In this document: piece by piece, positions 3,770-50,736 of the stretch
Layout of the letters: the number at the start of each line of letters is the position of its first letter
How positions within the stretch are numbered: position 1 is the stretch's first letter
Assembly: GCA_049318005.1 (NCBI GenBank)
Contig: JBMOHE010000002.1
Location: 13,824 to 77,823 of the forward strand
DNA: 64,000 nucleotides
From: Patescibacteria group bacterium
GTDB taxonomy: Bacteria; Patescibacteriota; Patescibacteriia; Patescibacteriales; UBA12465
Direction: 5' to 3'
Made by a program: the position numbers and the translations under genes
The notes under the pieces: model-generated
Told to the model about the DNA's origin: nothing
Databases searched by the model: none
What the model saw: only the letters and a program-made list of their open reading frames with translations

Positions 3770-3795
3770 AAATTAAACTAGAAAGGAGTAAAAAC

Positions 3796-5007
3796 ATGAA
3801 AAATTTAAAAAAAACCGCCGTAAAATCGCTAGTAAACCGTTTCTTAATCTTGTCCTTTTTAATCGCCCTAGTTGGCTCAGTTTCCGCCGCAACCTATGTT
3901 CTATTCTTAAAAAGTAAGGGGCTAGATCTTCTACAAGTAAATATAATTAATGCCTTTTTCATGGCAACGATTATCTTAATGGAGATGCCAACCGGATCAT
4001 TCGCTGATAAATTCGGTCGTCATCGCTCAATCACAGTTAGCTTTTTCTTATTTACGATTGCTCTCGTTACTTATTATTTCGCTGATAGTTTCTGGCTCTT
4101 TATTCTATCTGAAGTAATTGCGGGTCTGGCTCTAACTTTTTCTTCTGGCGCGCTAGAAGCTTGGCTAGTTGATTCACTTAAATTTCACGGTCTTGTTCAT
4201 TTAAAATTTAAATTATTTAGAAAGGAAGCTTACTTTGTTTCGGCCGGATTAGTTATTGGTAGCTTATCAGGATCATATCTTGGTGACTATGACTTATCTT
4301 GGCCTTGGATTTTAGGCGCTATTAGTTCACTATTAGCAGGAATATATTCTTTATCAATTAAAGAAGACTATCACGAAGCAGGAACTAAACGAGTCAAAAC
4401 GGGGCTAATAAAGCAAATAAAAATTGCTAGTCAACATGGTTTCAATAATCGTCATATTGTTATATTTATGTTTCTGGGGGCGATATTTAATCTATCTATT
4501 CAGGCACTTAATATGCAATGGACACTAGTATTTCAAAATGTATACCAAGTTGAAACAAAGTATTTAGGTTGGATATTTGTGGCCACGGCAATAATTATTT
4601 CTCTAGGCAGCACTTTATCTAAATATAGTCTTAAATATATTAAAGATGAGAAGAAATCATTAGCCATCACTCAAATATTAACGGCTATATTTATTATCAT
4701 TCTAGCTTTATCTAGCAATTTAATTATGGCCCTAAGCTTCTTCTTTCTTCATGAACTAACACGTAGTTTCTTCGGTCCTATAAAGAAAAATTTTCTTAAT
4801 GATCACATTCAATCAGAAACCAGGGCGACGGTTCTTTCCCTTGATTCGATGATGGCAAAAGTTGGAAGTTTAATTGGGCTTATTTCAAGTGGCTGGATCG
4901 CTAATAACTATTCAATTAAAACTGCTTGGCTAGCTTCCGGAATATTTCTCTTGGTTGTGCTCCTAGTATTCTTAATAGCAAAACCAAAAAACAAAAACGG
5001 ACTTTAA
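3796..5007 (+). CDS. MFS transporter
   Basis: 403 aa, about 12 predicted TM helices, motif-A-like MPTGSFADKFGRHRS; strong SD upstream. Confidence 0.85.
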   Translation: MKNLKKTAVKSLVNRFLILSFLIALVGSVSAATYVLFLKSKGLDLLQVNIINAFFMATIILMEMPTGSFADKFGRHRSITVSFFLFTIALVTYYFADSFWLFILSEVIAGLALTFSSGALEAWLVDSLKFHGLVHLKFKLFRKEAYFVSAGLVIGSLSGSYLGDYDLSWPWILGAISSLLAGIYSLSIKEDYHEAGTKRVKTGLIKQIKIASQHGFNNRHIVIFMFLGAIFNLSIQALNMQWTLVFQNVYQVETKYLGWIFVATAIIISLGSTLSKYSLKYIKDEKKSLAITQILTAIFIIILALSSNLIMALSFFFLHELTRSFFGPIKKNFLNDHIQSETRATVLSLDSMMAKVGSLIGLISSGWIANNYSIKTAWLASGIFLLVVLLVFLIAKPKNKNGL

Positions 5008-7330: not shown

Positions 7331-8374
7331 ATGGCCAGAATTATTGCTAAAGGATATTCGTTTAACGACGTCCTTATTTCTCCTAAATATAATAAAATTG
7401 TCTCTCGACGGGACGTAAAATTTGAGACTCATATTACTAAAAATTATAAATTAGATATTCCTTTGGTCGCGGCCAATATGGACACTATTTGCGAAAGCGA
7501 AATGGCTATCGCCCTGGGTCGATTAGGCGGTCTCGGCGTTATTCATCGTTTTTTAAGCATTGAAGAACAAGCTGAACAAGTAAAAAAAATTAGATCCCAG
7601 AATTTAATTGCGGCAGCTGCAATTGGCGTTAAGGATTTCGAAGAAAGAGCGGCCGCCCTTGAAAAAGCCGGTGTAAATATTATTGTTTTAGATGTTGCCC
7701 ATGGCCATTCAAAACGGGCCGGAAAAACTCTTGATTATTTAAAAACCAATCATCCTAAAATTGATATTCTAGTCGGCAATATTGCGACTAAAGACGCCGC
7801 CGAGTATTTTATCAGTAAAAAAGCTGATGGAATTAAGGTCGGTATAGGCCCAGGATCAGCTTGCACGACACGAATCATGACTGGAGCTGGTGTGCCCCAA
7901 ATTACGGCCATTATGGACGTCTACGAGGCCTCTCAGGGGAGAGTTCCTGTTTGTGCTGATGGCGGAATAAAATGCCCAGGTGATATCGTAAAAGCAATTG
8001 GTGCTGGAGCTGATACTGTTATGAGCGGCTCGATATTTGCTGGCTGCGATGAGACTCCGGGAGAAATAATTGAAAAAGATGGCGAGAAGGTAAAAGAGTA
8101 TCGCGGTATGGCTAGTTTTCTAGCAACTGTTAAAAAATTAAAGCTTGATGGCCAAAAAATAGAGGAGGACGTTCATGTTGAAGGTGAAGCATCGGTTGTT
8201 CCCTGTCGTGGTCCAATTTCTAAAGTCGTACACCGCTATTTAGGTGGTTTAGCCTCTGGTATGACTTATGTAGGGGCGGATGAAATCGAAAAGTTAAAAG
8301 GCAAGGCTGACTTTATAGAAATATCAGCAGCGGGATATGCTGAAAGTGTGGCTAATATAAAAGCTCAAGATTAA
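7331..8374 (+). CDS. IMP dehydrogenase/GMP reductase family protein (short form without CBS pair)
   Basis: 347 aa TIM-barrel; catalytic loop GIGPGSACTTR; ADGGI...GS phosphate-binding blocks. Confidence 0.8.
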   Translation: MARIIAKGYSFNDVLISPKYNKIVSRRDVKFETHITKNYKLDIPLVAANMDTICESEMAIALGRLGGLGVIHRFLSIEEQAEQVKKIRSQNLIAAAAIGVKDFEERAAALEKAGVNIIVLDVAHGHSKRAGKTLDYLKTNHPKIDILVGNIATKDAAEYFISKKADGIKVGIGPGSACTTRIMTGAGVPQITAIMDVYEASQGRVPVCADGGIKCPGDIVKAIGAGADTVMSGSIFAGCDETPGEIIEKDGEKVKEYRGMASFLATVKKLKLDGQKIEEDVHVEGEASVVPCRGPISKVVHRYLGGLASGMTYVGADEIEKLKGKADFIEISAAGYAESVANIKAQD

Positions 8375-12078: not shown

Positions 12079-13368
12079 CTATTTCTTTAAAAATGGGAAG
12101 CTAACATATTCTGATTTGCCCTCAAGTTCGGCTTCAATCGCCATTAAACGATTATACTTAGCTGTTCTTTCGCTACGAGCTGGTGCGCCGGTTTTAATTT
12201 GACCAGTACCAAGAGCAACAACTAAATCAGCAATGAAAGCGTCTTCTGTTTCACCGCTACGATGAGAGATAACCGCTGTCATACCGTTAGCCTGAGCTTC
12301 ATTTACGGCTTTAATAGTTTCAGTTAATGATCCAATCTGATTTAGTTTAATTAAAATTGAGTTAGTAATTTTTTCGGCGATCCCCCTTTCTAATCTTTTA
12401 ACGTTAGTAACATATAGATCATCTCCTACTACTTGAACCTCCCAGTTAAACGCATCCGTGAAAGCTTTAAAACCAGTCCAATCATCTTCAGCTAAAATAT
12501 CTTCAAATGATAAAATAGGATGACGTTTACTTAAATCTTGATAGAAAGAAATTAATTCCGCGCTAGTCATTACTTTATTTTCTTTTTTCAAGTGATAGGC
12601 GTTATCAGAGAAAAATTCAGTCGCGGCTGCATCAATACCATAAACAATATCTTTGCCCAATTCATACCCAGCTTTTTTAACCGCCTCAGTTAATAAATCA
12701 AAAGTTTCTTCGTTAGATGATACGGCCGGAGCAAAACCTCCTTCGTCGCCAACACTAATACTATATCCTTTATCTTTCAAAACTTTTTTCAAAGCTTGAT
12801 AAATTTCCGCACACATCTGGACTGCTTGAGAAATTGATTTAGCGCCAACTGGTAAAATCATATATTCTTGAATATCAGTTGCCCAATTAGCATGTTTACC
12901 GCCATTTAAAACATTCATCATCGGCACAGGCATTTTATATGTTCCAGAAAAATTAGGATTAAACTTTGATAGATATTGATATAAAGGCTGGTTTAAACTA
13001 GTCGCCGCTGCACGAGCCACCGCCATGGAAACGCCTAAAATAGCATTAGCTCCCAAAACTGCTTTATTCTCAGTCCCGTCTAGATTAATCATAATACTAT
13101 CAATTTTTTCTTGCTCAGTTGCATCCTGGCCGATTAAGGCTGGAGCAATCTTTTCTTCGATATTTTTAACCGCATTTAAAACACCAGCGCCACCATAAAC
13201 AGCCTTATCGCCATCACGAAGCTCAACCGCTTCATAACTCCCAGTTGAAGCGCCACTTGGAACCGCCGCCCAACCACTAACACCGTTTTCTAAAATAACA
13301 GTTGCGGATAAAGTTGGATTCCCTCTTGAATCTAATATTTGAAGTGCTTTAATTGATTTTATTTTCAT
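12079..13368 (-). CDS. eno: Enolase (phosphopyruvate hydratase)
   Basis: 429 aa; ILDSRGNPT, SHRSGETED, IKTGAPARSERTAKYN signature blocks. Confidence 0.97.
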   Translation of the reverse strand: MKIKSIKALQILDSRGNPTLSATVILENGVSGWAAVPSGASTGSYEAVELRDGDKAVYGGAGVLNAVKNIEEKIAPALIGQDATEQEKIDSIMINLDGTENKAVLGANAILGVSMAVARAAATSLNQPLYQYLSKFNPNFSGTYKMPVPMMNVLNGGKHANWATDIQEYMILPVGAKSISQAVQMCAEIYQALKKVLKDKGYSISVGDEGGFAPAVSSNEETFDLLTEAVKKAGYELGKDIVYGIDAAATEFFSDNAYHLKKENKVMTSAELISFYQDLSKRHPILSFEDILAEDDWTGFKAFTDAFNWEVQVVGDDLYVTNVKRLERGIAEKITNSILIKLNQIGSLTETIKAVNEAQANGMTAVISHRSGETEDAFIADLVVALGTGQIKTGAPARSERTAKYNRLMAIEAELEGKSEYVSFPFLKK

Positions 13369-20040: not shown

Positions 20041-21267
20041 CTATTCTATTCTTAGGGCTTCAACCGGATCTAAATTAGCTGCCTGCTTAGCTGGTCTATA
20101 ACCAAATAACAGACCGCATAAAATTGAAAATAGTAAAGAAGCGCCAATTCCCTGCCAAGGGAAAATAAACTGCCAATTTAAATTAAAATATTTAGCCAGT
20201 AAGGTTAAAAGAAAGGAAAAAATAACTCCCAAGATAGTTCCTAGCAACCAGCCCCAGAAAGTAATTAATAATGATTCAATTAAAAACTGCCAGACAACAT
20301 CTTTTTTAGTTGCGCCCAGCGCTTTACGCAAACCAATCTCTGGAGTTCTCTCAACGACAGTAACATACATAATATTCATAATACCGACTCCTCCGACCAA
20401 CAAAGAAATTAAGACAATCGCTAGTAATAAATATGTAACGGCATTAGTAACCGTTCCCAGTGTGTTTAACATTTCTTCCATGGTCGAGACCCTGAAATCA
20501 TCTTTATCGGGGTTAGTGATATTATGGCGCTCGCGCAACAAACCTTTAATTTCTTCGGCCGTCTCGGGCGCTCGATTAACATCCCTAACTTGATGCATGA
20601 AATAAATTGCATAATCAATGCCCAAGATACTTTTATGGAGAGTATTTATAGGAACATAAACAATATTATCGAAATCAATGAATGCCGCTCCTCCTCCCTG
20701 AGCGCTCAAAACGCCAACGACTTTAAATTTCTTACTACCTAATTTAATTGATTTTCCTACCGCCTCCTGATTACCAAATAAATAATCTTTTAAAGAAGCC
20801 CCTAAAACGGCGACCATGGCCTGACTTTTGTCATCATCTTCACTGAAAAATTCCCCTGATGCTAATTTAGTTTTAGAATCTATCTGTGCATAAGGAGCGC
20901 TAGTTCCAAAAATAAATACTTTCTTACTCTGCGATTCATAACTAACCCTCTGCTGCGCCAATGAGGCGGCATAGCTCATTGAAACATTACTAATTCTATT
21001 AATCGCCGACATGTCATCCATTTTCAAAGAAGTAACTTCAACCACGCCATTAGGGCTATTACCTGGAGCCTTAGCCTCGGTCTGGATAACATTAGTTCCA
21101 TATGATTTAATCTCGCCTGAAACAAGATTGCTCAACATGCTCCCGGCTGAAAAAACAATAATAATCGCCGAAACTCCGATAACCACGCCTAAAACAGTTA
21201 AACTTGTTCTAAGAAGATTCAAGCGTAATGATCTGTAAGCTAATTGGAAGGCAATGATAATCCGCAT
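20041..21267 (-). CDS. ABC transporter permease, MacB/FtsX type (second copy)
   Basis: N-terminal TM, large extracytoplasmic domain, C-terminal FtsX block GIMNIMYVTVVERTPEIGLRKALGA. Confidence 0.9.
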   Translation of the reverse strand: MRIIIAFQLAYRSLRLNLLRTSLTVLGVVIGVSAIIIVFSAGSMLSNLVSGEIKSYGTNVIQTEAKAPGNSPNGVVEVTSLKMDDMSAINRISNVSMSYAASLAQQRVSYESQSKKVFIFGTSAPYAQIDSKTKLASGEFFSEDDDKSQAMVAVLGASLKDYLFGNQEAVGKSIKLGSKKFKVVGVLSAQGGGAAFIDFDNIVYVPINTLHKSILGIDYAIYFMHQVRDVNRAPETAEEIKGLLRERHNITNPDKDDFRVSTMEEMLNTLGTVTNAVTYLLLAIVLISLLVGGVGIMNIMYVTVVERTPEIGLRKALGATKKDVVWQFLIESLLITFWGWLLGTILGVIFSFLLTLLAKYFNLNWQFIFPWQGIGASLLFSILCGLLFGYRPAKQAANLDPVEALRIE

Positions 21268-39841: not shown

Positions 39842-40303
39842 TTACTTAATAAGGCCGATTTTTTTCGCGCACCGAATGGACATACAATATCCATTAGTGT
39901 ATTTAAATTCCGAAAGAGTTCTGGCTTCAGGATCAACAACGAATGCCCAGGCATCAATACACATTTCAACCAGTGCGGATTTTCTCAAATTTTTCAAAGC
40001 ATTATTTAGTGACCAGCGCCAACTATTTGCTAATAGATTTTCTGCCACATATTCTTGAAAGCGAATAATATCTCCCTCCACTTCCAAGGCCTGTTCGCAA
40101 ACCGGAGTAAACGTATGACATTCATCTAAGCGTTTTTGGGTAATAATGTCTTCAAAAAGACTTCTTTTCATTGACCAACTATTACCATGCTTGGTAAATA
40201 TCTTAATGATAATATCCAACATGCCGTCATTTTCGACGCTATAAAAAAATTTTTGATTCCAGCCCGTTTTTACATTACTCGGACTATTGCTTTGCATCTT
40301 CAT
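39842..40303 (-). CDS. Hypothetical protein (153 aa)
   Basis: Long ORF, no recognised motif. Confidence 0.5.
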   Translation of the reverse strand: MKMQSNSPSNVKTGWNQKFFYSVENDGMLDIIIKIFTKHGNSWSMKRSLFEDIITQKRLDECHTFTPVCEQALEVEGDIIRFQEYVAENLLANSWRWSLNNALKNLRKSALVEMCIDAWAFVVDPEARTLSEFKYTNGYCMSIRCAKKIGLIK

Positions 40304-40336
40304 CTTTTACTAGTATTTGATTGTTGTTAATGTAAT

Positions 40337-40360
40337 AAAAAAACATACCATATGGTATGT
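40337..40360 (-). terminator. Intrinsic terminator following repeat copy R1
   Basis: Perfect palindrome ACATACCATATGGTATGT followed on the minus strand by TTTTTTT. Confidence 0.7.
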
Positions 40361-40376
40361 CTTTTGTCAATACTTC

Positions 40377-40453
40377 TCCGCGAACTGAATCTTATTAGAG
40401 CTTGTTTAATTAGTTAATTTTACCCCCAGGGTAACTCACTATATATTAGTCAC
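40377..40453 (-). repeat. Copy R1 of a ~70-nt 3'-flank element (orphan copy)
   Basis: TCCGCGAACTGAATCTTATTAGAGCTTGTTTAATTAGTTAATTTTACCCCCAGGGTAACTCACTAT aligns along its length with 42337-42405 and 48951-49020. Confidence 0.75.
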
Positions 40454-40555
40454 GATAGCGTAACCGCTTTTGGTTTCGCTAGCAATATAGAGAGAGGTGG
40501 TAAAAATAAAAAAGAGAGGTCTATTGCTAGCCTCCCTGATTTTAATTTTAATTAA

Positions 40556-40810
40556 TCATAAATTACCAAGCGCTTTTCCTAATTTATCCAATTGATCTTT
40601 GCTATACCCAGCCTGAGTAAAAGAATTAGGATTGTCAAAGTCTGATGGATGAGATATATGACGGATATGATACCCCTGGCCACCACAATCCGTACAAGTT
40701 TGTTTTCCGCTTCCATACTTTTTCCAGGAAGAAGTGTCTCCGCATATCCATTCAAAATTTCTTTCTTTACCTGATCCATTACAGGTAGTACAAGTTACCT
40801 TTTTTTCCAT
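40556..40810 (-). CDS. Small DnaJ-type zinc-finger protein (84 aa)
   Basis: CTTCNGSGK...CTDCGGQG (two CxxCxGxG motifs). Confidence 0.6.
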   Translation of the reverse strand: MEKKVTCTTCNGSGKERNFEWICGDTSSWKKYGSGKQTCTDCGGQGYHIRHISHPSDFDNPNSFTQAGYSKDQLDKLGKALGNL

Positions 40811-40879
40811 GACAGTGTTTTTTACAAGATTAATACTAATACGTTTTTTAACGATTTAATAACAAATTAACCAAAATAA

Positions 40880-41068
40880 TTACTGTGTGTAGTCAGTGTA
40901 AGTAGTGCTTACTGTGACTTTACGACGACCATCACATTCTGTACAAGTAACTTGTTTTGGTTTCTCATCCCAATAACGGCCACCAAAGCTGTAATGCCAG
41001 TTAGATATTTTACCTACACCATTACAACGTGAGCAATTTTCTTCTGTAACAACCAACTTTTGTCTCAT
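40880..41068 (-). CDS. Small zinc-finger protein (62 aa), paralogue-like of the 84-aa protein
   Basis: CSRCNGVGK...CTECDGRRK. Confidence 0.55.
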   Translation of the reverse strand: MRQKLVVTEENCSRCNGVGKISNWHYSFGGRYWDEKPKQVTCTECDGRRKVTVSTTYTDYTQ

Positions 41069-41169
41069 CTTATTTGCTTTTTAAATTAGTACTTATTAAA
41101 TTTTTAAAGTTCTATTAGCTATTAACAAATTATTTTAATACAAATATTGAATAATGTCAAACAAAATTA

Positions 41170-41198
41170 TTGACTAATTACAGATAATGAATTATATT
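41170..41198 (+). promoter_or_regulatory. Sigma-70 promoter for the plus-strand trio 41269-42125
   Basis: TTGACT-17 nt-TATATT. Confidence 0.55.
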
Positions 41199-41268
41199 AA
41201 ATAGTTGAGTTATATAAATAAAACTTACAAATTTAACTAGTTTTTTTAACAATTAAATACTTATTAAA

Positions 41269-41733
41269 ATGGAAAGAGTAATTGTAGATTTTAGTGTAGA
41301 TTATAGTATTTCACTTGAAGACATGATTGACGATAGCTCATTCGTGTCACAAGGCAGCGGAGCTCATTGCCTAAAAGAAATTGATTGTGATTTATTTACT
41401 CACCCTAATGAATTAGATGGCAATACAGATTATCTTGAAGGGACACTATTCAGTTTTTATCACTCAGCTCACGGTATGCATGTAATTCCAGAAGAAAGAA
41501 TTATCGAAGAAATGGAGCGCGAGGGGTATCGACCAGCTAACGTAGCCGAACTTTTAGCTTATTGCCAAGCTGCTTTAGATGATAATTTTTTAGAAGAAGG
41601 CTGTATTATGGCAGTAGGACAAAACGAAACTGAGGCAAGAAGTACTCGGTGGCCATGTATTAACTTGGAGGAAAAAACTATTTTTACTGATCTTAATTTG
41701 TATTATAAACATAGTTTTCTGGGCGTAAGATAG
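41269..41733 (+). CDS. Hypothetical acidic protein (154 aa)
   Basis: Long ORF downstream of the promoter; no motif recognised. Confidence 0.5.
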   Translation: MERVIVDFSVDYSISLEDMIDDSSFVSQGSGAHCLKEIDCDLFTHPNELDGNTDYLEGTLFSFYHSAHGMHVIPEERIIEEMEREGYRPANVAELLAYCQAALDDNFLEEGCIMAVGQNETEARSTRWPCINLEEKTIFTDLNLYYKHSFLGVR

Positions 41734-41765
41734 AATAAAACATTAATAATTTAAAAAGGTAAGCA

Positions 41766-41993
41766 ATGAAAACAGTTATTGTAGTAATTGACAAAGTTAC
41801 CATGGAACCAATTCCTGGTAAACGTATTGTACTGGGATTTTCCTGGGGTATGAGTAAAACAGTTTATACCGATGATGACGGTGAGGCTGAAATCGAACAC
41901 ACTAGTTCAGCAATGGCAGAAGTTTATATTAACGGCACTTATGTCGACAAAATACAAACTCCGACCAGAAAAAAGTTTTATGTGAAAAATTAA
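41766..41993 (+). CDS. Hypothetical small beta-rich protein (75 aa)
   Basis: SD-like AAAGGTAAG upstream; same transcription unit. Confidence 0.5.
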   Translation: MKTVIVVIDKVTMEPIPGKRIVLGFSWGMSKTVYTDDDGEAEIEHTSSAMAEVYINGTYVDKIQTPTRKKFYVKN

Positions 41994-42013
41994 TAACCGT
42001 TTAAAAAACAGAT

Positions 42014-42125
42014 CATGGACACTAAAAACAGCTACTGCCCAAGATGCAGTAAGGTTACCAGTCAAACAAAAGTTAGCAAAAACACAATGGATTATCGTTG
42101 TGATGACTGCGGAAGAGTTTCTTAA
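42014..42125 (+). pseudogene. Frameshifted zinc-ribbon mini-gene (CPRC...CDDC)
   Basis: ATG 42014 reads MDTKNSYCPRCSKVTRSNKS*; the second Cys pair (MDYRCDDCGRVS*) is in the +1 frame; removing one G of CCAGG at 42057-42061 gives one 36-aa ORF. Confidence 0.4.
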
Positions 42126-42145
42126 GAGTAAAGTAAATAATTAAA

Positions 42146-42180
42146 ACCGCATTTATGAAAATTAAATGCGGTCTTTTTTT
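42146..42180 (+). terminator. Intrinsic terminator of the plus-strand unit
   Basis: ACCGCATTTA-TGAAAAT-TAAATGCGGT (10-bp perfect stem) then CTTTTTTT. Confidence 0.85.
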
Positions 42181-42299
42181 ATTAAAAAAGGAGACTCAAC
42201 TATAAAAAATTTACTATTTTACTTTTTAAAATACTTATATTTCAGTCACAATAACGTCACACTTTGATATTTTAGGCAGTGTATTTTACGTGTTTACAA

Positions 42300-42326
42300 C
42301 AAAAAATAGGCTAATGTTAGCCTATT
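42300..42326 (-). terminator. Intrinsic terminator after repeat copy R2
   Basis: Minus strand AATAGGCTAACATTAGCCTATTTTTT. Confidence 0.65.
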
Positions 42327-42336
42327 TAATGTTTGC

Positions 42337-42405
42337 TCCGCGAACTGAAGCTTATTAGAACCTGTTTGATGAGTTAATCATACCCCATGGTAACTCACTA
42401 TGTGT
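42337..42405 (-). repeat. Copy R2 of the ~70-nt 3'-flank element, directly after the giant-gene stop codon
   Basis: TCCGCGAACTGAAGCTTATTAGAACCTGTTTGATGAGTTAATCATACCCCATGGTAACTCACTATG. Confidence 0.8.
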
Positions 42406-45400
42406 TTATTTTAAATCACCCACATCTATTTTTCTAATATTTTCATTACTTATTCCAAGAGATAACTGTCTCATTATTTGATAAGCAGCCTCTCCGTTAG
42501 CGAGATAATATCTGTAACCATCAGTTGGGTTAATATACCAGGCTTCCCCGTTATTTTCTACTTGAAGAACTATTCTGCCTTTTAATCTATTAGTTAGAGC
42601 GGTTGAATAATTAGTATTCTTGATATAATCACTTGGTAAGACAGAAGTAGGAGCAACTGGTATTTTGTTTAAATCGGCATTAGTTATTCCTAACCCAAAC
42701 TTACGTAGAGCTTGATAGGCAGCTGGTCCATCAGCTAGATAATATCTTGATAAAGAGACCTTGTCTAAATACCAGGCTTGGCCTTTAGTTTCTACTTGGA
42801 GTAATATGCGGCCAGCTAGTTTAGTTGAAAGCTTCTTATCTATTATCTTAGATAGTAGTGATCTTTCATATTGATAGATGCTGGAAATATAATTATTAGC
42901 CTGACCATCTTTGGTTGGCTCATTGACTTCTGGGGTAGTAGGGGATCCGCAACTTCTTTCAGTGAGAGCTCTTTGCTCAGCTGTTAGTGAGCAGAAGTTT
43001 GGAGATTTAGCTAGAACGTTTCTAAATTGTTTACCGCCGATACAAGTGGTTTGCCAAGCGTCGTAAGTTACTTCAGAGCAGCTAGAGATAACTAGAGGAG
43101 AATATGAGCTGCCACTTGCAGGGCTAGCTACTGGATTATTACCAGTATAGACAACGTATTCGGAAAAGTGCTTAGTCCAGACAATCAAATCGCTGCCAAC
43201 ATTAATTTTACAATCGCCATTAGCTATTAAGGCGTCACCGTCTAACTGGGAATCACCGGAGCAAGTATTACTAATTGGCCTAAACTCTCCCATATTGTTA
43301 ATAAAGCCAACATTATTACCAGCCTGACCGAAGAATGTCACTCTAACTGCTTTATTTAGAGTTAAGGTGGCGTTAGGGTCGCCGATTTCGAAAATGGAGA
43401 TAATGTCACTAGTTTTAAGAGATATGGACCCCGCTGCTTTTTGCTGAGGCAAACTAAATACCTCCGACCAAGCTAAAGTATTAGCAGTCATAGTTGTTCC
43501 ACTAAATACTTCCAAGCGAATATCTGAGGAGATATTAGCAATTAATTTCTCAGCGAAAGTGACTGTTTTACTACCACTAACAGTTTCAACGACAGAAGAA
43601 AGGTCAAGAGATATTTTATTAACACTATCAACACTACTAATTGTTGTTTGGGCATGCTTCATGTCTGGTGAAAATGCGATAGCTTGTGAATTACTAGTAT
43701 TTATGTATATAGGCTGAACGTTTATTAAAGTAACTGATTTAGCAAAATAGTTAGAGACTAAACCGCTACTATCTTTTGACCAGGCGTAAAGATTGTTTCC
43801 AAACGATGAGGTATAAATATTATTTCCAGATACAGCAATCAGGTCAGAGCCTCTATTAGAAGCAGCGACCAAAGATCCACTAAGGGTAGAATTAAAACTA
43901 GTCCAATTAGCGCCACCATCTAGAGACTGGTAACCATTACTTCCAGACAAAGCTATAATGTGTTTATCATCCTCTCCTGAGATGATAAAGGAATTAATAG
44001 ATGTGTCTTGAATCTTAAACTCTGTCCAAGTATTACCATCGTCTTCTGAAAAATACTTACTATCAACTCCGTCATTATTAACCGTCGCTACTAATTTAGT
44101 TCCGTAAGATGAGTATTTCAAACCGCCGCTAATTAGTGTTCCCGATGGACGAGTCTTTTGCAAATAGTTAACACCACCATCTGTTGACACCCAGATAAAA
44201 TTACCAACTTCAGAATTACCAGCCGCAATTTTTTCACCATTTCTAGTCATTGTGATTGCTAGCCAGTCACTAACAGCCACTGATGAAGAAGCCCAGGTGG
44301 CTCCACTATCACTGGACATATAGATGTCGGTAGCGTTACCAGTAACAACAATCTTTGAGCCATCAGAAGATGAATCTATTACTCTGAAATTTCCAGTAGT
44401 AGCACTAGACCAAGTAGAGCCGCCATTAATAGATTTCGAAACACCGCTTGAACCAGCTAGATATAATTTTAGGCCATCAGCGGAGGCGCCAAGATCATAC
44501 CAAGTACCAGCCTCTGTGCTTACAGAACTCCATATTTGACCATAGTCAGAGGAAGTTGAGATGGTGCTGTTATTTATTAGAGCAAAAATCTTCTTACCAT
44601 CAGCTGCGCTAATTATTTTCTGAATAGCGTTAGAAGTAGTGGTTGATAAAGTCCAGGTAGCTGGATGACTTGGCTTTAGACTACTAAAGGCGTGGCTGGT
44701 TGGCGCCTGAGATCGCCAGCGAGAATTATTAGATAACGGCTTTTGATCTGTTTCGGTTAACAGATAGGCGGCAGCATTAGTTACTGGACTGAGGATTAGA
44801 GAAACAACTGAAGAGCTAGACACAAGAGGAATAGACAAAGAATCGGAATTGGAAGTAACTAAAATTTTCCATTGGCCATAAGCTGTTTCTTCGTTATTAG
44901 TAGCATAGGCACGGTAGTAATAGACAGTACCAGAAGTTAATCCCGACAAATCATATGAATAGTTACTATCAGAGAATGGACTACTTTCTGTAGTAGTGGC
45001 ATAGTTATTAATACTTGCCCCCCAGTTGAATCCTCTAACCGTTGGATCAAAAACATCTACATATTCAATGTTACCATTAATGGTTGCTGAGCTTGATTCT
45101 AGATTAGAAACTTCATCTGTTATTATCTTTTCAGATTTAAACTTGATTATGAAGATATCCATATTTCCATCTGAAACAAGATTAGAAACACCATATCCTG
45201 TGTCAAAATCGACGGTACCAGGAAAATAACCAGTGACATAGACGTTACTCAAAGAATCTACGGTAACTGATTCTCCATAATCATTACTAGTTGCACCAAT
45301 ACTTTTAGCCCAGGCGAATGCTCCATCAGCATTTAATTTAGAGATGAAGATATCTACATTGCCAGCTGAGACAAGATTATAAACACCAGACCCTGGGTCA

Positions 45401-48400
45401 AAATCAACAGTACTAGAAAAAGAACCAGTTGTATAGACATTGCCTGAGAAGTCTACAGTAATTGAATGCCCAGTATCATAACCAGTTCCACCCATCTTTT
45501 TTGCCCAAACAAAATTACCATTACTATCTAATTTTGAGATGAAAATATCATCACTAGCTGAAGTGAGATTATATACCTCCTCTCCTGGATCAAAATCACC
45601 GACGCCACGAAAATAACCAGTAGTATAAATATTACCTAAAGAGTCTACAGTGATTGAGTTTCCTCGATCATCACTAGTTCCGCCCATCTTTTTTGCCCAA
45701 ACAAAATTACCATTACTATCTAATTTTGAGATGAAAATATCATCACTAGCTGAAGTTAGATTATATACCTCCTCTCCTGGATCAAAATCACCCGTACCAG
45801 AAAAATAACCGGCGGTATAGACGTTACCCAAAGAATCTACAGTGATTGAATATCCATGATCATTACTAGTTGAACCAATCTTTTTTGCCCAAACAAAATC
45901 ACCATTATTATCTAACTTTGAAATAAAGATGTCAGCACTACCAGTTGAAACAAGATTGTAAGCGCCAACTCCGGGATCAAAATCAGCGATATAATCAAAA
46001 TAACCAGTGGTATAGATATTGCCCAAAGAATCTATAGTGATTGATTTTCCTGCCTGACCAGAAATTCCGCCAATTTGTTTAACCCAAATAAAATCACCAT
46101 TACTATCTAGTTTTGAAATAAAAATATCACTTTCACCAGATGAAACAAGATTATGTGTCCCCTCTCCTGGATCAAAATCAACGGTACCTCGGAAAGAACC
46201 AGTAGTATAAATATTACCAAAAGAATCTACAGTAATCGAATATCCATGATCATCACTAGTTGAACCCATCTTTTTTGCCCAGGCAAATGTTCCATCGGCG
46301 TTTAATTTAGAGATGAAAATATCTTCATTGCCAGCTGAGACAAGATTATACACGCCAGATCCTGGGTTAAAATCAACAGTATCAGAAAAACTACCAGTAA
46401 TATAAACATTATCCAAAGAATCTACAGTTATTAAGCGTCCATTATCACCACCATTTCCGCCAATCTTTTTTGCCCAAACAAAATTTTGTTCATAATTAGG
46501 GGACTTGGTTTTGAATACCGTCCAATCCCCATAAACAGTGTCTTCATTATTACTAGTAGCGTAAGCCCGATAATAATATATCGTATCAATTTCTAGATCA
46601 GTTAATTCATAAGAAAATGTTCCCGCTCCAAATGTACCATTCTCTGTAGTTGTGGCAAAAGTGCTAGTACTTATTCCCCAATTAAAACCCCTAGTCGTTA
46701 AGACAATTGAGCCTATTCCTAAAATATCACCCCTAAGAATGGCTGTATGTTCATCAATACTGTTTAAAATTAGCGCTTCTACGGAAAAGCTATTAAAAGA
46801 TTTCCACTCGCTATAACTGGTTCCCATATTATCAGTAGCATAGGCCCGGTAATAATATATAGTACCAGGAACAAGATTTGAGAGATTATAAGAATAAGTT
46901 CCTTCGCTGAAAGTGCCATTCTCTGTAGTTGTGGCAAAAGTGCTAGTACTTGTTCCCCAATTAAATCCTCTGACATTCGGATTACTTTCACCAATAGATA
47001 ATATATCGCCATTTAAGATAGCTGAATCTCTATTTAAGCCACCGACAATTGAGTTAAGTTCTAAAACTCTGTTAGTAGTAAACGAAGTCCACTCGCTATA
47101 ACTGGTTCCCATATTATCAGTAGCATAGGCCCGGTAATAATATATAGTACCAGGAACAAGATTTGAGAGATTATAAGAATAAGTTCCTTCGCTGAAAGTG
47201 CCATTCTCTGTAGTTGTGGCAAAAGTGCTAGTACTTGTTCCCCAATTAAATCCTCTGACATTCGGATTACTTTCACCAATAGATAATATGTCGCCATTTA
47301 AGATAGCTGATGATGTGCTAATATTATTAACAGTGGAAGAAACCATAGCTAAATCTATTTTCCGTATTTTTAAAATATAAGCATCAGATAGACCGGCTGA
47401 GACAAGATTGGAAACACCGACCCCTGGGTCAAAATCAACCGTGCCAGAAAAATAACCAGTGGTATAGAGGTTACCCAAAGAATCTACAGTGATTGAATAT
47501 CCATGATCATTATTATTTACACCAATATTCTTAGACCAAATAAAGTTACCACTGCTATCTAATTTAGAGATAAAGACATCGTTGCCGCCATTTGAAGTCA
47601 GATTATATACTCCACTTCCTGGATCAAAATCACCTGTACCAGAAAAATAACCAGTGGCATAGATATTACCCAAAGAATCTACAGTGACTGAGTTTCCTTG
47701 ATTGCTATTAGTTGAAACTATCTTTTTTGCCCAAACAAAAACGCCATTACTGTCTAACTTGAGAACAAAAGTGCCACCGTTCATCAGACTAGAAACACCA
47801 GTTCCTGGGTCAAAATCAACCGTGCCAGAAAAATAACCAGTGGTATAGACATTTCCCGAGGAGTCTAAAACAATTGAAGCCCCTCCATCTACTACAAAAG
47901 ATTTGCCAATTTTCTTATACCAAAGAGAATTCCCATTAATATCTAATTTGGAAATAAATATATCAGATCCATTCTCGCCAGTTATATAGGTATTTCCAGA
48001 TGGATCTACGGTGATTGATTTTCCTTGATTATAATGACCAGCGGTAGATCCGCCTATCTTTTTGGCCCAGGCAAAAGTACCATTAGCATATAGCTTAACG
48101 ATAAAATCAGAGGAGTCATTCGTCGAAGTTAGGTTAAAAACACCAGCTCCCGGATCAAAATCAACGGTGCCTTGAAAAAAGCCAGTGGCATAGATATTAC
48201 CCAAAGAATCTACAGTGACTGAGTTTCCTCGTCCTCCATAAATTCCGCCGCCCATATTCTTAGCCCAAGCGAATGTTCCATCGGTATTTAATTTTGAAAT
48301 GAAAATGGAATCGGCGCCACCAGAAACAAGATTAGAAACACCAGCTCCTGGGTCAAAATCAACGGTGCCATAAAATACACCAGTTGTATAGACATTACCC

Positions 48401-48756
48401 GAGGAATCTAAAACAATTGAATGCCCAGCATCATAACTAGTTCCGCCCATCTTTTTTGCCCAAACAAAATTACCATTACTATCTAATTTTGAAATAAATA
48501 TGTCATAATTACCAGCTGAAACAAGATTAGAAACACCAGCTCCTGGGTCAAAATCAACGGTGCCATAAAATACACCAGTTGTATAGACATTACCCAATGA
48601 GTCTAAAATGATTGAATATCCAATATCATCGCCAGTTCCACCAATCTTTTTAGCCCAATCAACAGCAACATCTTCCGCTAACGCTGGCCTAGAAGAGAAA
48701 AAAATTAGAGCGAAAACTAAAATAAAAAAGCATTTTTTGAAAGTTTTTAAATTCAT
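42406..48756 (-). CDS. Giant secreted surface protein (2116 aa): two SBBP-type beta-propeller repeat arrays, four FN3/Ig-like modules, Asp-box (BNR-like) region, Cys module, two C-terminal ~60-aa repeats
   Basis: Signal peptide ...SSRPALA/EDV; many repeats of the type G.S.D.G.SI.VDS.GN.Y.TG.F.GT.DFDPG....L.S.G..D.FISKL; SxDxGxTW-like boxes (SSDYGQIW, SDSGATW, EDDGNTW, LDGGANW). Confidence 0.85.
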   Translation of the reverse strand: MNLKTFKKCFFILVFALIFFSSRPALAEDVAVDWAKKIGGTGDDIGYSIILDSLGNVYTTGVFYGTVDFDPGAGVSNLVSAGNYDIFISKLDSNGNFVWAKKMGGTSYDAGHSIVLDSSGNVYTTGVFYGTVDFDPGAGVSNLVSGGADSIFISKLNTDGTFAWAKNMGGGIYGGRGNSVTVDSLGNIYATGFFQGTVDFDPGAGVFNLTSTNDSSDFIVKLYANGTFAWAKKIGGSTAGHYNQGKSITVDPSGNTYITGENGSDIFISKLDINGNSLWYKKIGKSFVVDGGASIVLDSSGNVYTTGYFSGTVDFDPGTGVSSLMNGGTFVLKLDSNGVFVWAKKIVSTNSNQGNSVTVDSLGNIYATGYFSGTGDFDPGSGVYNLTSNGGNDVFISKLDSSGNFIWSKNIGVNNNDHGYSITVDSLGNLYTTGYFSGTVDFDPGVGVSNLVSAGLSDAYILKIRKIDLAMVSSTVNNISTSSAILNGDILSIGESNPNVRGFNWGTSTSTFATTTENGTFSEGTYSYNLSNLVPGTIYYYRAYATDNMGTSYSEWTSFTTNRVLELNSIVGGLNRDSAILNGDILSIGESNPNVRGFNWGTSTSTFATTTENGTFSEGTYSYNLSNLVPGTIYYYRAYATDNMGTSYSEWKSFNSFSVEALILNSIDEHTAILRGDILGIGSIVLTTRGFNWGISTSTFATTTENGTFGAGTFSYELTDLEIDTIYYYRAYATSNNEDTVYGDWTVFKTKSPNYEQNFVWAKKIGGNGGDNGRLITVDSLDNVYITGSFSDTVDFNPGSGVYNLVSAGNEDIFISKLNADGTFAWAKKMGSTSDDHGYSITVDSFGNIYTTGSFRGTVDFDPGEGTHNLVSSGESDIFISKLDSNGDFIWVKQIGGISGQAGKSITIDSLGNIYTTGYFDYIADFDPGVGAYNLVSTGSADIFISKLDNNGDFVWAKKIGSTSNDHGYSITVDSLGNVYTAGYFSGTGDFDPGEEVYNLTSASDDIFISKLDSNGNFVWAKKMGGTSDDRGNSITVDSLGNIYTTGYFRGVGDFDPGEEVYNLTSASDDIFISKLDSNGNFVWAKKMGGTGYDTGHSITVDFSGNVYTTGSFSSTVDFDPGSGVYNLVSAGNVDIFISKLNADGAFAWAKSIGATSNDYGESVTVDSLSNVYVTGYFPGTVDFDTGYGVSNLVSDGNMDIFIIKFKSEKIITDEVSNLESSSATINGNIEYVDVFDPTVRGFNWGASINNYATTTESSPFSDSNYSYDLSGLTSGTVYYYRAYATNNEETAYGQWKILVTSNSDSLSIPLVSSSSVVSLILSPVTNAAAYLLTETDQKPLSNNSRWRSQAPTSHAFSSLKPSHPATWTLSTTTSNAIQKIISAADGKKIFALINNSTISTSSDYGQIWSSVSTEAGTWYDLGASADGLKLYLAGSSGVSKSINGGSTWSSATTGNFRVIDSSSDGSKIVVTGNATDIYMSSDSGATWASSSVAVSDWLAITMTRNGEKIAAGNSEVGNFIWVSTDGGVNYLQKTRPSGTLISGGLKYSSYGTKLVATVNNDGVDSKYFSEDDGNTWTEFKIQDTSINSFIISGEDDKHIIALSGSNGYQSLDGGANWTSFNSTLSGSLVAASNRGSDLIAVSGNNIYTSSFGNNLYAWSKDSSGLVSNYFAKSVTLINVQPIYINTSNSQAIAFSPDMKHAQTTISSVDSVNKISLDLSSVVETVSGSKTVTFAEKLIANISSDIRLEVFSGTTMTANTLAWSEVFSLPQQKAAGSISLKTSDIISIFEIGDPNATLTLNKAVRVTFFGQAGNNVGFINNMGEFRPISNTCSGDSQLDGDALIANGDCKINVGSDLIVWTKHFSEYVVYTGNNPVASPASGSSYSPLVISSCSEVTYDAWQTTCIGGKQFRNVLAKSPNFCSLTAEQRALTERSCGSPTTPEVNEPTKDGQANNYISSIYQYERSLLSKIIDKKLSTKLAGRILLQVETKGQAWYLDKVSLSRYYLADGPAAYQALRKFGLGITNADLNKIPVAPTSVLPSDYIKNTNYSTALTNRLKGRIVLQVENNGEAWYINPTDGYRYYLANGEAAYQIMRQLSLGISNENIRKIDVGDLK
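46804..47310 (-). repeat. Intragenic near-perfect tandem duplication, 285-bp period (two FN3-like modules)
   Basis: 46804-47025 and 47089-47310 are nearly identical (one mismatch noticed: ATATATCGCC vs ATATGTCGCC); a diverged third unit lies at about 46505-46790. Confidence 0.85.
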
Positions 48757-48950
48757 AAAGAATATACTATTTTATTTTAACATATATATAGATTTATTTT
48801 AACATATAGAATTAAAAGCATCAAAAAAATTAATTAAACAAAGATAAAAATATTCTAAGATAGGAGTGGTAAGCTTTTATTAAACCGTTTTACTAAAATA
48901 ACTTAAATATAGCAAAAACAAGCATTTCTTCCTATTTTTGAATTACTAGC

Positions 48951-49020
48951 TATGCGAACTGAAGCTTATTAGAACCTGTTTGAGGAGTTAATTATACCCC
49001 CAGAGTAACTCACTATTGTT
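48951..49020 (-). repeat. Copy R3 of the ~70-nt 3'-flank element, directly after the truncated-paralogue stop codon
   Basis: TATGCGAACTGAAGCTTATTAGAACCTGTTTGAGGAGTTAATTATACCCCCAGAGTAACTCACTATTG. Confidence 0.8.
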
Positions 49021-49965
49021 TTATTCTAAGTCACCAACACCTATCTTTCTAATATTTTCATTACTAATTCCAAGAGATAACTGTCTCATTATTTGATAAG
49101 CAGCCTCTCCACTGGCAAGATAATATCTATAACCATCAGTTGGATTAATGTACCAGGCTTCCCCGTGGTTTTCTACTTGAAGAACTATTCTTCCTTTTAA
49201 TTTATTGGCTAAAGCGGTTGAATAATTTGAACTTTTTACATAATCACTTGGTATCGCTGATTTTGGCGCTACAGGTATTTTAGCGAGATTGACATTATTA
49301 ATACCTAAACCAAACTTACGCAAAGCCTCATAGGCGGTTGGGCCATCAGCTAGGTAATATCTCTGTAGTGACACGGCATCTAAATACCAAGCTTGACCAA
49401 AACGCTCTGTTTGCAGCAATATCCTGCCAGCCAAACGTTTAACTAGGTTTTTATCAATTTTTATTGTTAATTTTTTTTCGTCCAATATAACGCTAGACGT
49501 TTTAGAATTGATAATGTTACCTAAATTTTTTATTTCTAAAATTGATTCAGTGGACGTTGCTTCTTTAAGTATTTGTTCAGTTGATGTGGCTAATTCACAA
49601 ATCCTACTAGATGCTATTTGCTGAATTGTGGTTAATGTACAAGAAGCTGGAGTACTAGTTAAAACTTTACGAAATTGTTGATTGCCAACGCAAGTCTGCC
49701 AAGGAGAATAAGTTATATCCGAACAATAAGTTGTGGCTGGTCCACCACCGCCACCGCCACCTCCTCCGCTTGTAACGGTCGCTGTTTGAGTATATGTAGC
49801 AAAACTAGTAAAATGCTTAGTCCAAATTACTAAATCTGAACCTGAATTTATTTTACAGTCTCCGTCAATAATTAAATTTGCATCTGCCCAAGTTTGAGAG
49901 TTTTCTCCGCAAGCAGTTGATATCTCAGTAAAATCAATTTCTGTTCTTATCATGTTTTCTTGCAT
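49021..49965 (-). CDS. 5'-truncated paralogue of the giant protein C-terminus (314 aa, no signal peptide); possibly a pseudogene or silent cassette
   Basis: Colinear with roughly the last 330 aa of the giant protein (GDCKIN.GSDL..WTKHF, Cys module, two GRI.LQVE..G.AWY repeats); last ~200 nt highly similar at DNA level. Confidence 0.6.
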   Translation of the reverse strand: MQENMIRTEIDFTEISTACGENSQTWADANLIIDGDCKINSGSDLVIWTKHFTSFATYTQTATVTSGGGGGGGGGPATTYCSDITYSPWQTCVGNQQFRKVLTSTPASCTLTTIQQIASSRICELATSTEQILKEATSTESILEIKNLGNIINSKTSSVILDEKKLTIKIDKNLVKRLAGRILLQTERFGQAWYLDAVSLQRYYLADGPTAYEALRKFGLGINNVNLAKIPVAPKSAIPSDYVKSSNYSTALANKLKGRIVLQVENHGEAWYINPTDGYRYYLASGEAAYQIMRQLSLGISNENIRKIGVGDLE

Positions 49966-50055
49966 TTTGGCTTGTTTCCGAGAAGTATCTCGGTCAACAG
50001 CACAAAAAATGTGTTGGCTCCCAGGGTCGGATTCGAACCGACGACCAATTGGTTA

Positions 50056-50621
50056 CACTTATCCAATAGTTTCCTAAAGGGGTGGACTATATCATCATCC
50101 ATACGCTTATGGATGCAAGGCGCTTCGGGCCGTCTACCGACGGACCTACTCCCTTTCGGGATAGTCTCTGAACCTTCCCTAAACTCTAGGGCTTGGCTGC
50201 TGATTACCATATCCTTACAGATTTAGGCTTCCAGACAATTCACCTTGTTTTTCGACCTCAATTACTTGAGGAAGCTGCGTAGAACCTTCGTGCACTTCAC
50301 GATGACAATTTGCACATAATAGCATACATTTATTAAGCTCTTCCTTTATCATTTTCCAACTTCTTGTATATCCTTTTGCAGATATACCAAAATCTTTTTT
50401 ATCAGATTCTAGATGATGGAATTCAAGAGCTTTTAAACATTTACTATAACCACAAACTGAGCATCTACTGCCTTTGTATTCAAGAGATAATTGACGAATC
50501 TTTTTACGTCTTCTATCAACTGCCTGTTTTAAATACTCGGCACGATCGGCATATTTTCTTTTATCTTTTGTCATACAAATATATAAATATATTCATAGTA
50601 GCTAAAGATAAAAAAGAGTTC
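50056..50621 (-). mobile_element. Group I intron (P7.1/P7.2-bearing, IA-like) with HNH ORF in the P1 loop
   Basis: IGS GCAGCT (50273-50278) pairs with exon GGCTGT incl. U.G; P2 CCTCAA-GTAA-TTGAGG; P3 CAAGGTG/CGCCTTG; P6 CCCTA/TAGGG; P7 GACTAT/ATAGTC; P8 CATCCATA-AGCG-TATGGATG; GTTCAGAGACTA and GATATAGTCC core elements; omega-G 50056. Confidence 0.8.
50215..50574 (-). CDS. Intron-encoded HNH endonuclease (119 aa)
   Basis: CSVCGY...LEFHHL...NKCMLLCANCHREVH (CxxC...HH...N...CxxCH HNH motif); last ~35 codons overlap IGS, P2, P3, P4; stop codon in L5. Confidence 0.85.
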   Translation of the reverse strand: MTKDKRKYADRAEYLKQAVDRRRKKIRQLSLEYKGSRCSVCGYSKCLKALEFHHLESDKKDFGISAKGYTRSWKMIKEELNKCMLLCANCHREVHEGSTQLPQVIEVEKQGELSGSLNL

Positions 50622-50708
50622 ACAGCCAACTGCGCTACCGCTGCGCTACCTGGGAATATTAAGTTGTCTCAAAAAAACAAAAATGTTTTTTAAACATCTT
50701 ACTATCAT

Positions 50709-50736
50709 ATTTTAGCAGATGCCAATATTATGTCAA
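50709..50736 (-). promoter_or_regulatory. Candidate promoter of the tRNA-Asn gene
   Basis: Minus strand TTGACA-16 nt-TAAAAT, about 50 nt upstream of tRNA position 1. Confidence 0.5.

Follow-up and report, generated by a model that had tools for sequence, protein, structure and literature searches.

In the 64,000-nt stretch of DNA analyzed here (the window; Patescibacteria group bacterium, assembly GCA_049318005.1, contig JBMOHE010000002.1, positions 13,824 to 77,823), a 314-codon open reading frame (ORF) lies on the minus strand between a tRNA-Asn gene and a gene for a giant secreted protein. We read this ORF, with a probability of about 0.6, as the 3′ remnant of a second surface-protein gene, which would have lost its 5′ part beside the tRNA and had its tail converted by its giant neighbor. 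The ORF is annotated by NCBI from Met5 as a 310-aa hypothetical protein (ACOYL8_01260, here P0001). The features on which the argument turns are as follows.

49021..49965, minus strand: 314-codon ORF, probable 3′ remnant of a secreted surface-protein gene
49966..50014, minus strand: 49-nt spacer from the tRNA CCA end to the ATG, with a stable hairpin inside
42406..48756, minus strand: gene for the giant secreted protein, 2116 aa
48950..49257, minus strand: putative converted tract, fragment copy (last ~68-78 codons, stop and 66-nt element)
42336..42642, minus strand: putative converted tract, giant-gene copy (codons ~2039-2116, stop and 66-nt element)
48950..49016, minus strand: 66-nt repeat, copy 1, beginning 4 nt past the fragment stop codon
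42336..42401, minus strand: 66-nt repeat, copy 2, after the giant gene stop; terminator hairpin 42327-42304 next
40376..40442, minus strand: 66-nt repeat, copy 3; terminator hairpin 40360-40343 next

The ORF encodes a beta-rich domain tail (residues 1-65), a poly-Gly linker (67-75), a four-Cys module (~80-125), a helical linker, and two C-terminal repeats (residues 176-236 and 250-314). The giant gene (48756-42406) begins 264 nt beyond the end of the ORF (49965-49021), and its product comprises a signal peptide, SBBP beta-propeller repeats, fn3-like domains, and a C-terminal Cys module with two repeats.

Ancestry of the ORF and of its 3′ end

A search of the ORF protein against 5.8 billion proteins (homolog cutoff E ≤ 1e-3) returned 763 homologs, almost all of them Patescibacteria proteins of 200-550 aa in which the same C-terminal module follows a signal peptide and N-terminal domains of various kinds (fn3, CAP, SH3, peptidase S11, subtilase, and TSP3 among them). 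The best foreign matches reach E 1e-115 to 1e-93 at 60-68% identity. The ORF belongs to this family, its similarity spanning the Cys module and both repeats with the invariant G/W/Y positions retained; it departs from the family in having no N-terminal signal peptide and only the tail of a passenger domain.

A first-pass annotation, made from the sequence alone, had described the ORF as a 5′-truncated paralog of the giant protein's C-terminus. The two are indeed colinear: residues 5-314 align with residues 1818-2116 of the giant protein at 58% identity (BLASTP, E 6e-111), and the GDCKIN...WTKHF block, the four-Cys module, and both ~55-aa repeats are common to them. As a simple copy of its neighbor, however, the ORF does not fit, because residues 6-236 come from another lineage. 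The poly-Gly linker is present in the ORF and in homologs P0002-P0007, and the giant protein lacks it. Two full-length relatives from metagenomes, L082 (1224 aa, 64% identity) and L083 (626 aa, 58%), both carrying signal peptides, match the ORF from residue 6 or 7 to its end. Over residues 6-65 the ORF is 85% identical to L082, 78% to P0002, and 76% to L083, as against 49% to the giant protein; over residues 66-125 the corresponding values are 66-68% (P0003-P0005 and L083) and 38%, and over residues 176-236 they are 85% (L082 and P0003) and 77%. Over residues 237-314 the foreign relatives reach at most 78% and the giant protein 86%.

Support for these affinities was assessed by nearest-neighbor bootstrap. 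The giant protein is the nearest neighbor of the ORF in 0-1.4% of bootstraps across residues 6-236 (0% over residues 66-236) and in 92-95% over residues 237/247-314. Its own nearest neighbors over module residues 66-236 are P0008, P0010, and P0013; over residues 247-314 it is the fragment, in 93% of replicates. At 24 of 29 diagnostic sites in residues 66-175 the ORF has the poly-Gly-clade state, and at none of the 29 that of the giant clade. Judged from sequence, then, the ORF is not copied from the 3′ end of the giant gene and represents a separate poly-Gly-linker lineage over residues 6-236. That the giant gene's own 3′ end was recently duplicated in part and in tandem, as the colinear 58% identity and the common flank might suggest, is hardly tenable: synonymous sites are saturated between the fragment and the giant gene over codons 1-236, residues 6-236 are far nearer to foreign proteins than to the giant, and the linker type and the 24 diagnostic sites belong to the other clade.

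Several of the public contigs that carry the closest homologs are flawed (L001, L145 at ~3790-3880, and L146 at ~7810-7820). L001 (1-2242), the 2.2-kb contig that encodes P0002, the best full-coverage protein match, is a chimera of a GC-rich DotU-type gene and the 3′ end of a gene from the candidate phyla radiation (CPR); P0002 was accordingly dropped as a guide to full gene length.

The 3′ end has a different history. In 60-nt windows, nucleotide identity between the ORF and the giant gene is ~45-55% over the first ~500 aligned nt, ~70-80% in repeat 1, and, from codon ~247 onward and on into the flank, ~90-93%. Where both genes encode the same amino acid, the codon differs in 55% of cases up to codon 236-239 and in 20% beyond that point (maximum chi-square 21; permutation p 0.0002, or 0.015 using the repeat region only). 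Over codons 247-314 the fragment and the giant gene have a proportion of synonymous differences (pS) of 0.33, whereas in all other pairings of the five sequences compared (these two, L082, L083, and L001) pS is 0.55-0.84; general synonymous constraint is therefore not the cause of the drop. The mosaic tract that the first-pass annotation had suggested looking for by nucleotide alignment is thus present, with a sharp break near codons ~237-247, and its phrase "recombination scar" was broadly right. We take the segment to be a recombination tract of ~280 nt between the fragment and the giant gene, with gene conversion as the predicted process. The two copies of the tract are ~90-91% identical, and the exchanged part corresponds to the module's repeat 2, where conservation across 78 homologs is highest.

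Four columns in the tract segment separate the two clades. The giant protein has its own clade's state in all four; the fragment is giant-like in two, with giant-clade residues at the internal columns (N247 and Y279) and own-clade residues at S246 and E314. This pattern suggests that the giant gene was probably the donor in the conversion and the fragment the recipient. Because pS in the tract has reached 0.33, the last exchange was old and such exchanges are probably rare.

The likeness of the DNA extends past the stop codons, as first reported: blastn gives 81.8% identity over 478 nt (49431-48954 against 42816-42340), running 67 nt beyond both stops. Directly after each stop lies a 66-nt sequence, ATAGTGAGTTAC...TTCAGTTCGC. 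This flank had been described as shared by the two genes; it does run past both stops, but it is not private to them, having a third copy at 40376-40442. Copy 3 is 87% identical to copy 1 and has the same orientation; its neighbors on either side are two unrelated small ORFs, one for a zinc ribbon of 84 aa and the other of 153 aa, and no module paralog is nearby. The three copies are in direct orientation, 85-91% mutually identical, and 6615 and 1960 nt apart; two of the three start within a few nucleotides of a stop codon, and a hairpin with a T-run terminator follows copies 2 and 3 clearly and copy 1 more weakly. Since the element is an independent repeat with a third copy, its presence after both genes does not by itself speak for duplication. 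It could have helped to anchor recombination, and it could represent a 3′ untranslated region/terminator module, a small RNA, or a recombination site. It had no copy in 144 related loci (nhmmer) and no Rfam match at a permissive threshold, its core pattern of 19 specified bases was unmatched in viral and metagenome collections, and RNAalifold on the three copies gave a conserved part without covariation. An integron attC site was considered and rejected, the RYYYAAC/GTTRRRY cores being absent in a comparison by eye.

In Helicobacter pylori, the conserved 3′ (anchoring) segments of co-resident paralogous genes for surface or outer-membrane proteins evolve in concert by gene conversion, as in babA/babB and sabA/sabB/hopQ. 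The present pair resembles these in that co-resident genes with divergent bodies have a sharply bounded, similar 3′ segment corresponding to a conserved C-terminal module, and in that their 5′ and 3′ parts are phylogenetically incongruent. Unlike them, it has a 5′-truncated partner, a tract that carries on beyond the stop codon into a distinct 66-nt repeat, a CPR host, and a module of uncharacterized function.

The first-pass annotation had proposed that the fragment is a silent donor cassette for converting the 3′ end of the expressed giant gene, that is, part of a programmed system of antigenic or phase variation. Silent-cassette variation is established for Neisseria pilS/pilE, Borrelia vls, Treponema tprK, and the Mycoplasma genitalium MgPa repeats. 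Like the partial copies of those systems, the fragment is truncated, has no signal peptide or promoter of its own, lies near a full-length surface gene, and bears evidence of non-reciprocal exchange; moreover, direct repeats of ~280-300 nt (84-91% identical, depending on the measure) bracket the giant gene. We nevertheless regard a cassette as very unlikely. There is a single fragment in the 64-kb window and no array, tblastn finding only the ORF itself and the giant 3′ end; exchange has affected the part of the protein that is conserved best, not a variable exposed part; by the four diagnostic columns the expressed gene would have been the source and the fragment the recipient; the exchange was old and is probably rare; and the fragment retains start codons and shows purifying selection, as protein-coding genes ordinarily do.

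The junction beside tRNA-Asn

That the ORF is 5′-truncated, as first noted, is confirmed by its relatives. The homology of L082, L083, and the giant protein runs at least 65 residues further upstream, and in the window it ends at ~49974, about 40 nt from the tRNA. In tblastn searches the L082 and L083 proteins match the ORF only from 49974 downstream; on the giant gene they reach 65-70 residues further upstream. Compared block by block with the DNA of L082, L083, and L001, the sequence matches at 7-11 of 12 positions downstream of codon 6; upstream of it, identity drops to background, with the exception of one 8-of-12 block at ~49969-49980. No further piece of an L082-like gene was found in the window by tblastn. 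Two other signal-less homologs, P0013 and P0042, were rejected as parallels to the truncated ORF, since both begin right after runs of N in their scaffolds and are gap artifacts.

The absence of a signal peptide and the 49-nt distance between the tRNA and the ORF, both reported earlier, also stand. The maximum Kyte-Doolittle hydrophobicity of a 12-residue window within the first 50 aa is 0.48; by the same measure, 79 of 106 Met-starting homologs have a maximum of at least 2.0. The tRNA CCA end is at 50015 and the ATG at 49965, with two in-frame ATGs (Met1 and Met5) at the junction. The spacer contains a hairpin with the core CCGAGA-UACU-UCUCGG (49993-49978; -17.8 kcal/mol, z -3.7), preceded by a U-run and followed, after its 3′ arm ends at 49978, by an A-run without a U-tract; it masks the bases that immediately precede the AUG. 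A hairpin with a U-tract comes after the tRNA in L003. The hairpin in the window may be the former terminator stem of the tRNA, its U-tract lost in the deletion; the putative breakpoint of a deletion or rearrangement lies at ~49974, directly 3′ of the hairpin.

The history that we favor would begin with a second, independent large secreted surface protein of the poly-Gly-linker lineage, whose relatives elsewhere are proteins of 300-1200 aa with signal peptides. A deletion or rearrangement with its left end just after the tRNA terminator stem and its right end inside the surface-protein gene would have taken away the signal peptide and passenger domains together with the beginning of the last beta-rich domain, fusing the remainder to the tRNA-Asn 3′ trailer directly past the hairpin. 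Before this truncation, or while the copy was still under selection, non-reciprocal gene conversion with the adjacent giant gene would have homogenized the last ~70 codons and the 3′ flank, the necessary homology being supplied by the common C-terminal module and the 66-nt post-stop element. The product, without an export signal, would no longer perform the extracytoplasmic job of the family. So read, the locus is a case of ordinary genome wear (concerted evolution plus gene truncation) and not a programmed cassette system, and it reveals no new mechanism. It would be an example, from an ultra-small genome of the CPR/Patescibacteria, of rearrangement among large surface-protein genes beside a tRNA, one of them beheaded and its tail homogenized with its neighbor; for annotation, it would mean that the 310-aa "hypothetical protein" is a gene fragment.

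Gene order on the minus strand runs from dnaG and rpoD (54452-51254), past a small membrane-protein ORF on the opposite strand, to tRNA-Asn, the 314-codon ORF, the giant gene, and small hypothetical genes. The closest rpoD loci are those of Candidatus Falkowbacteria-type metagenome-assembled genomes (MAGs), with RpoD identity of 80-81%. The succession of rpoD and tRNA-Asn is kept in L002, L003, L006, and L031. A comparison of synteny at the tRNA, suggested in the first pass, indicates that what follows is not fixed: unrelated genes come after tRNA-Asn in the GC-rich L031, and the contigs of L002 (at 12523-12595), L003 (at 20844-20916), and L006 (at 4134-4207) stop 0-152 nt past it. The region past tRNA-Asn would appear to be hard to assemble, which fits strain-variable or repetitive content.

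Integration at the tRNA 3′ end, which had been raised on the ground that such ends are classic recombination sites, gains no support from the window, where 32-nt and 20-nt patterns of the tRNA 3′ end (up to 3 mismatches) occur once only and there is no att-type repeat. No integrase was matched in Pfam or PHROGs among the ORFs scanned between 38062 and 54452, which are not all the ORFs of the window. The locus resembles integrase-mediated tRNA islands in that a variable region (giant gene and small hypotheticals) extends from the tRNA onward and the contigs of relatives break there; it differs from them in having no duplicate of the tRNA 3′ end in the window, no integrase among the Pfam-scanned flanking ORFs, and no shift in composition.

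A more speculative idea, to which we attach little probability, is that the fragment and the giant gene form a recombination switch, the 3′ direct repeats of ~280-300 nt with their 66-nt element bracketing a 6.6-kb adhesin-like gene. If the repeats recombined, the giant gene would be cut out as a circle, and a short hybrid ORF under the tRNA promoter would stay behind; the giant gene would be restored on re-integration. On this view the three direct 66-nt copies, with spacings of 6.6 kb and 1.96 kb, would be the marks of modules that can be exchanged downstream of tRNA-Asn. Such a switch would explain why related assemblies break exactly at tRNA-Asn.

Selection, expression, and the status of the ORF

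The 314-codon frame is intact, with no stop and no frameshift. In Tajima relative-rate tests against six full-length relatives with three outgroups, 20 of 21 comparisons were non-significant, and in the exception the fragment was the slower sequence. In the orphan domain tail, the proportion of nonsynonymous differences (pN) is 0.08-0.13 between the fragment and L082, L083, and L001, and 0.05-0.09 between full-length genes. The converted tract contains 14 synonymous and 6 nonsynonymous differences (dN/dS ~0.1); a fragment that had been neutral since the conversion would be expected to show at least 26 nonsynonymous differences, and this is rejected (P 2e-6). Of the possible point changes in the ORF 5.6% create a stop, and the intact frame caps any neutral period at about 0.06 substitutions per site, or at 0.02-0.03 if the indel rate is assumed to be 5-10% of that of substitutions. 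Long-continued "plain decay", the alternative offered in the first pass, is excluded by the intact frame, the lack of rate acceleration, and the low dN/dS. It follows that the truncation is much younger than the conversion, or that the fragment is still under selection, or that the junction is not real. If the ORF is a pseudogene, it is a very young one.

Nor does the earlier description of the fragment as "promoter-poor" apply without qualification. The fragment does lack a promoter of its own, but a near-consensus promoter precedes the tRNA and no intrinsic terminator intervenes before the ORF, so that the fragment could be transcribed by read-through from the tRNA promoter. A Shine-Dalgarno (SD)-like motif precedes only 4 of the 47 ORFs of at least 150 aa in the window, most leaders being plain and A/T-rich; because SD sites are rare in this genome, the absence of one here is uninformative about the status of the gene.

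The ORF could be functional as it stands, a selected short protein of the Cys module and two repeats that is transcribed by read-through and started at Met1 or Met5. We consider this a less probable reading. A frame of 314 codons remains open in a genome of 34% GC, relative rates are not accelerated, dN/dS is low in the tract and pN against the orthologs is low even in the orphan domain tail, no terminator separates the tRNA from the ORF, the missing SD site means nothing where 4 of 47 ORFs have one, and the Prokaryotic Genome Annotation Pipeline (PGAP) annotates a protein. Against this, the protein has a four-Cys module and no signal peptide in a family that is otherwise exported, its start falls partway into a block conserved among homologs, the hairpin sequesters the bases just 5′ of the AUG, and the architecture has no second example, the two signal-less homologs checked being scaffold-gap artifacts and the protein cluster having a single member.

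Misassembly, by which the tRNA-Asn trailer would have been attached midway into a surface-protein gene whose real genomic copy is full-length, is improbable. It would explain the absence of decay trivially; the contigs of three relatives (L002, L003, and L006) end at the same spot, which is hard to assemble, and chimeric or gapped contigs are common among the homologs (L001, L145, and L146). No misleading repeat or shared k-mer was found at the junction, however, and base composition is even across it, without a shift and without Ns. The fragment is also native to this genome, as its 91%-identical tract with the giant gene and the threefold occurrence of the 66-nt element in the window indicate.

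Some of these observations count against our preferred reading as a truncated and converted remnant. The intact frame, the two ATGs at the junction, and purifying selection fit a functional short protein equally well. The junction is known from a single MAG contig, 161,512 nt long, and the protein cluster has one member. No relative has the ancestral full-length gene at this position, the contigs of L002, L003, and L006 ending 0-152 nt past tRNA-Asn. The direction of conversion depends on four diagnostic columns only. Finally, AlphaFold folds the module of the ORF with a predicted local distance difference test (pLDDT) score above 90 and leaves the N-terminal 65 residues unfolded, but in the intact C-terminus of the giant protein the upstream domain scores below 50 as well, so that it is sequence conservation that suggests a mid-domain start of the ORF.

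The tRNA intron, the C-terminal module, and neighboring genes

The tRNA-Asn gene upstream of the ORF, together with its promoter, comprises the following features.

50622..50655, minus strand: tRNA-Asn(GUU) 5′ exon, 3′ end ...GGCUGU
50056..50621, minus strand: predicted group I intron inside the anticodon, Rfam core 50293-50063
50015..50055, minus strand: tRNA-Asn 3′ exon, UAACC...GGGAGCCA
50709..50736, minus strand: near-consensus sigma-70-type promoter match, TTGACA-16-TAAAAT, TG-extended, upstream of the tRNA

ARAGORN found no tRNA at this locus or elsewhere in the window; it misses tRNA-Asn(GUU) because a 566-nt group I intron splits the gene. The intron matches Rfam RF00028 at 90.2 bits (gathering score 50), with its core at 50293-50063. 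Exons 50655-50622 and 50055-50015 join as TCCCAGGTAGCGCAGCGGTAGCGCAGTTGGCTGT|TAACCAATTGGTCGTCGGTTCGAATCCGACCCTGGGAGCCA, which apart from compensated stem changes is the uninterrupted tRNA-Asn(GTT) found downstream of rpoD in L002 and L003; intron-less tRNA-Asn genes are present in L002, L003, L006, and L031. The intron splits the anticodon (CUGU|UAA), with junctions ...CUGU|G...GUG|UAACC, that is, with a U before the 5′ splice site and a G at the intron 3′ end. Within it, an ORF (50574-50215) encodes a 119-aa HNH endonuclease (PHROG HNH E 7e-29; Pfam HNH 20 bits). Exon GGCUGU could pair, with U.G at the splice site, to a candidate internal guide sequence, GCAGCU (50278-50273); the HNH ORF would then apparently occupy the P1 loop and extend over the beginning of the core. 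From its sequence features, tRNA-Asn(GUU) is interrupted by a group I intron whose splicing is predicted. In annotation, the case is one of a tRNA-Asn overlooked by tRNA finders owing to a group I intron.

Bacterial tRNA genes with endonuclease-bearing group I introns include cyanobacterial tRNA-Leu(UAA) and tRNA-fMet. The present intron resembles the known tRNA group I introns in its anticodon-loop site, the U before the 5′ splice site, the terminal G, the endonuclease ORF, and the occurrence of intron-less alleles in close relatives; unlike them, it has tRNA-Asn(GUU) as its host and an HNH ORF that is apparently in the P1 loop. For CPR tRNAs, group I introns are already on record (PMC8172020).

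The C-terminal module shared by the ORF and the giant protein (window 42406-43400 and 49021-49740, minus strand; homologs P0002-P0120) is built from a four-Cys unit of ~45 aa, a long helix, and two repeats of ~55 aa each. The repeats have the order beta-beta-beta-alpha-beta-alpha and the motif GRILLQVE..G.AWY..P....RYYL...A..IMR.LSLGI. No counterpart was found in Pfam, NCBIfam, or PDB. The module, which is probably a cell-envelope anchoring or binding unit, deserves attention as a very widespread C-terminal module of secreted Patescibacteria proteins without an assigned family or structure.

The window is AT-rich, with a GC content of 34%. A tandem pair of 22-nt repeats (ATATA.TA.TTTATTTTAACAT) at 48762-48805 abuts the start codon of the giant gene on its upstream side and overlaps two TG-extended promoter-like matches. 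Downstream of the giant gene, at 39842-42400, is a cluster of small hypothetical ORFs, none of which has a Pfam or PHROG match. It holds two CxxC...CxxC zinc-ribbon proteins (40556-40810 and 40880-41068, minus strand) and three plus-strand ORFs, and together with the giant gene it looks like a variable region that begins at tRNA-Asn.

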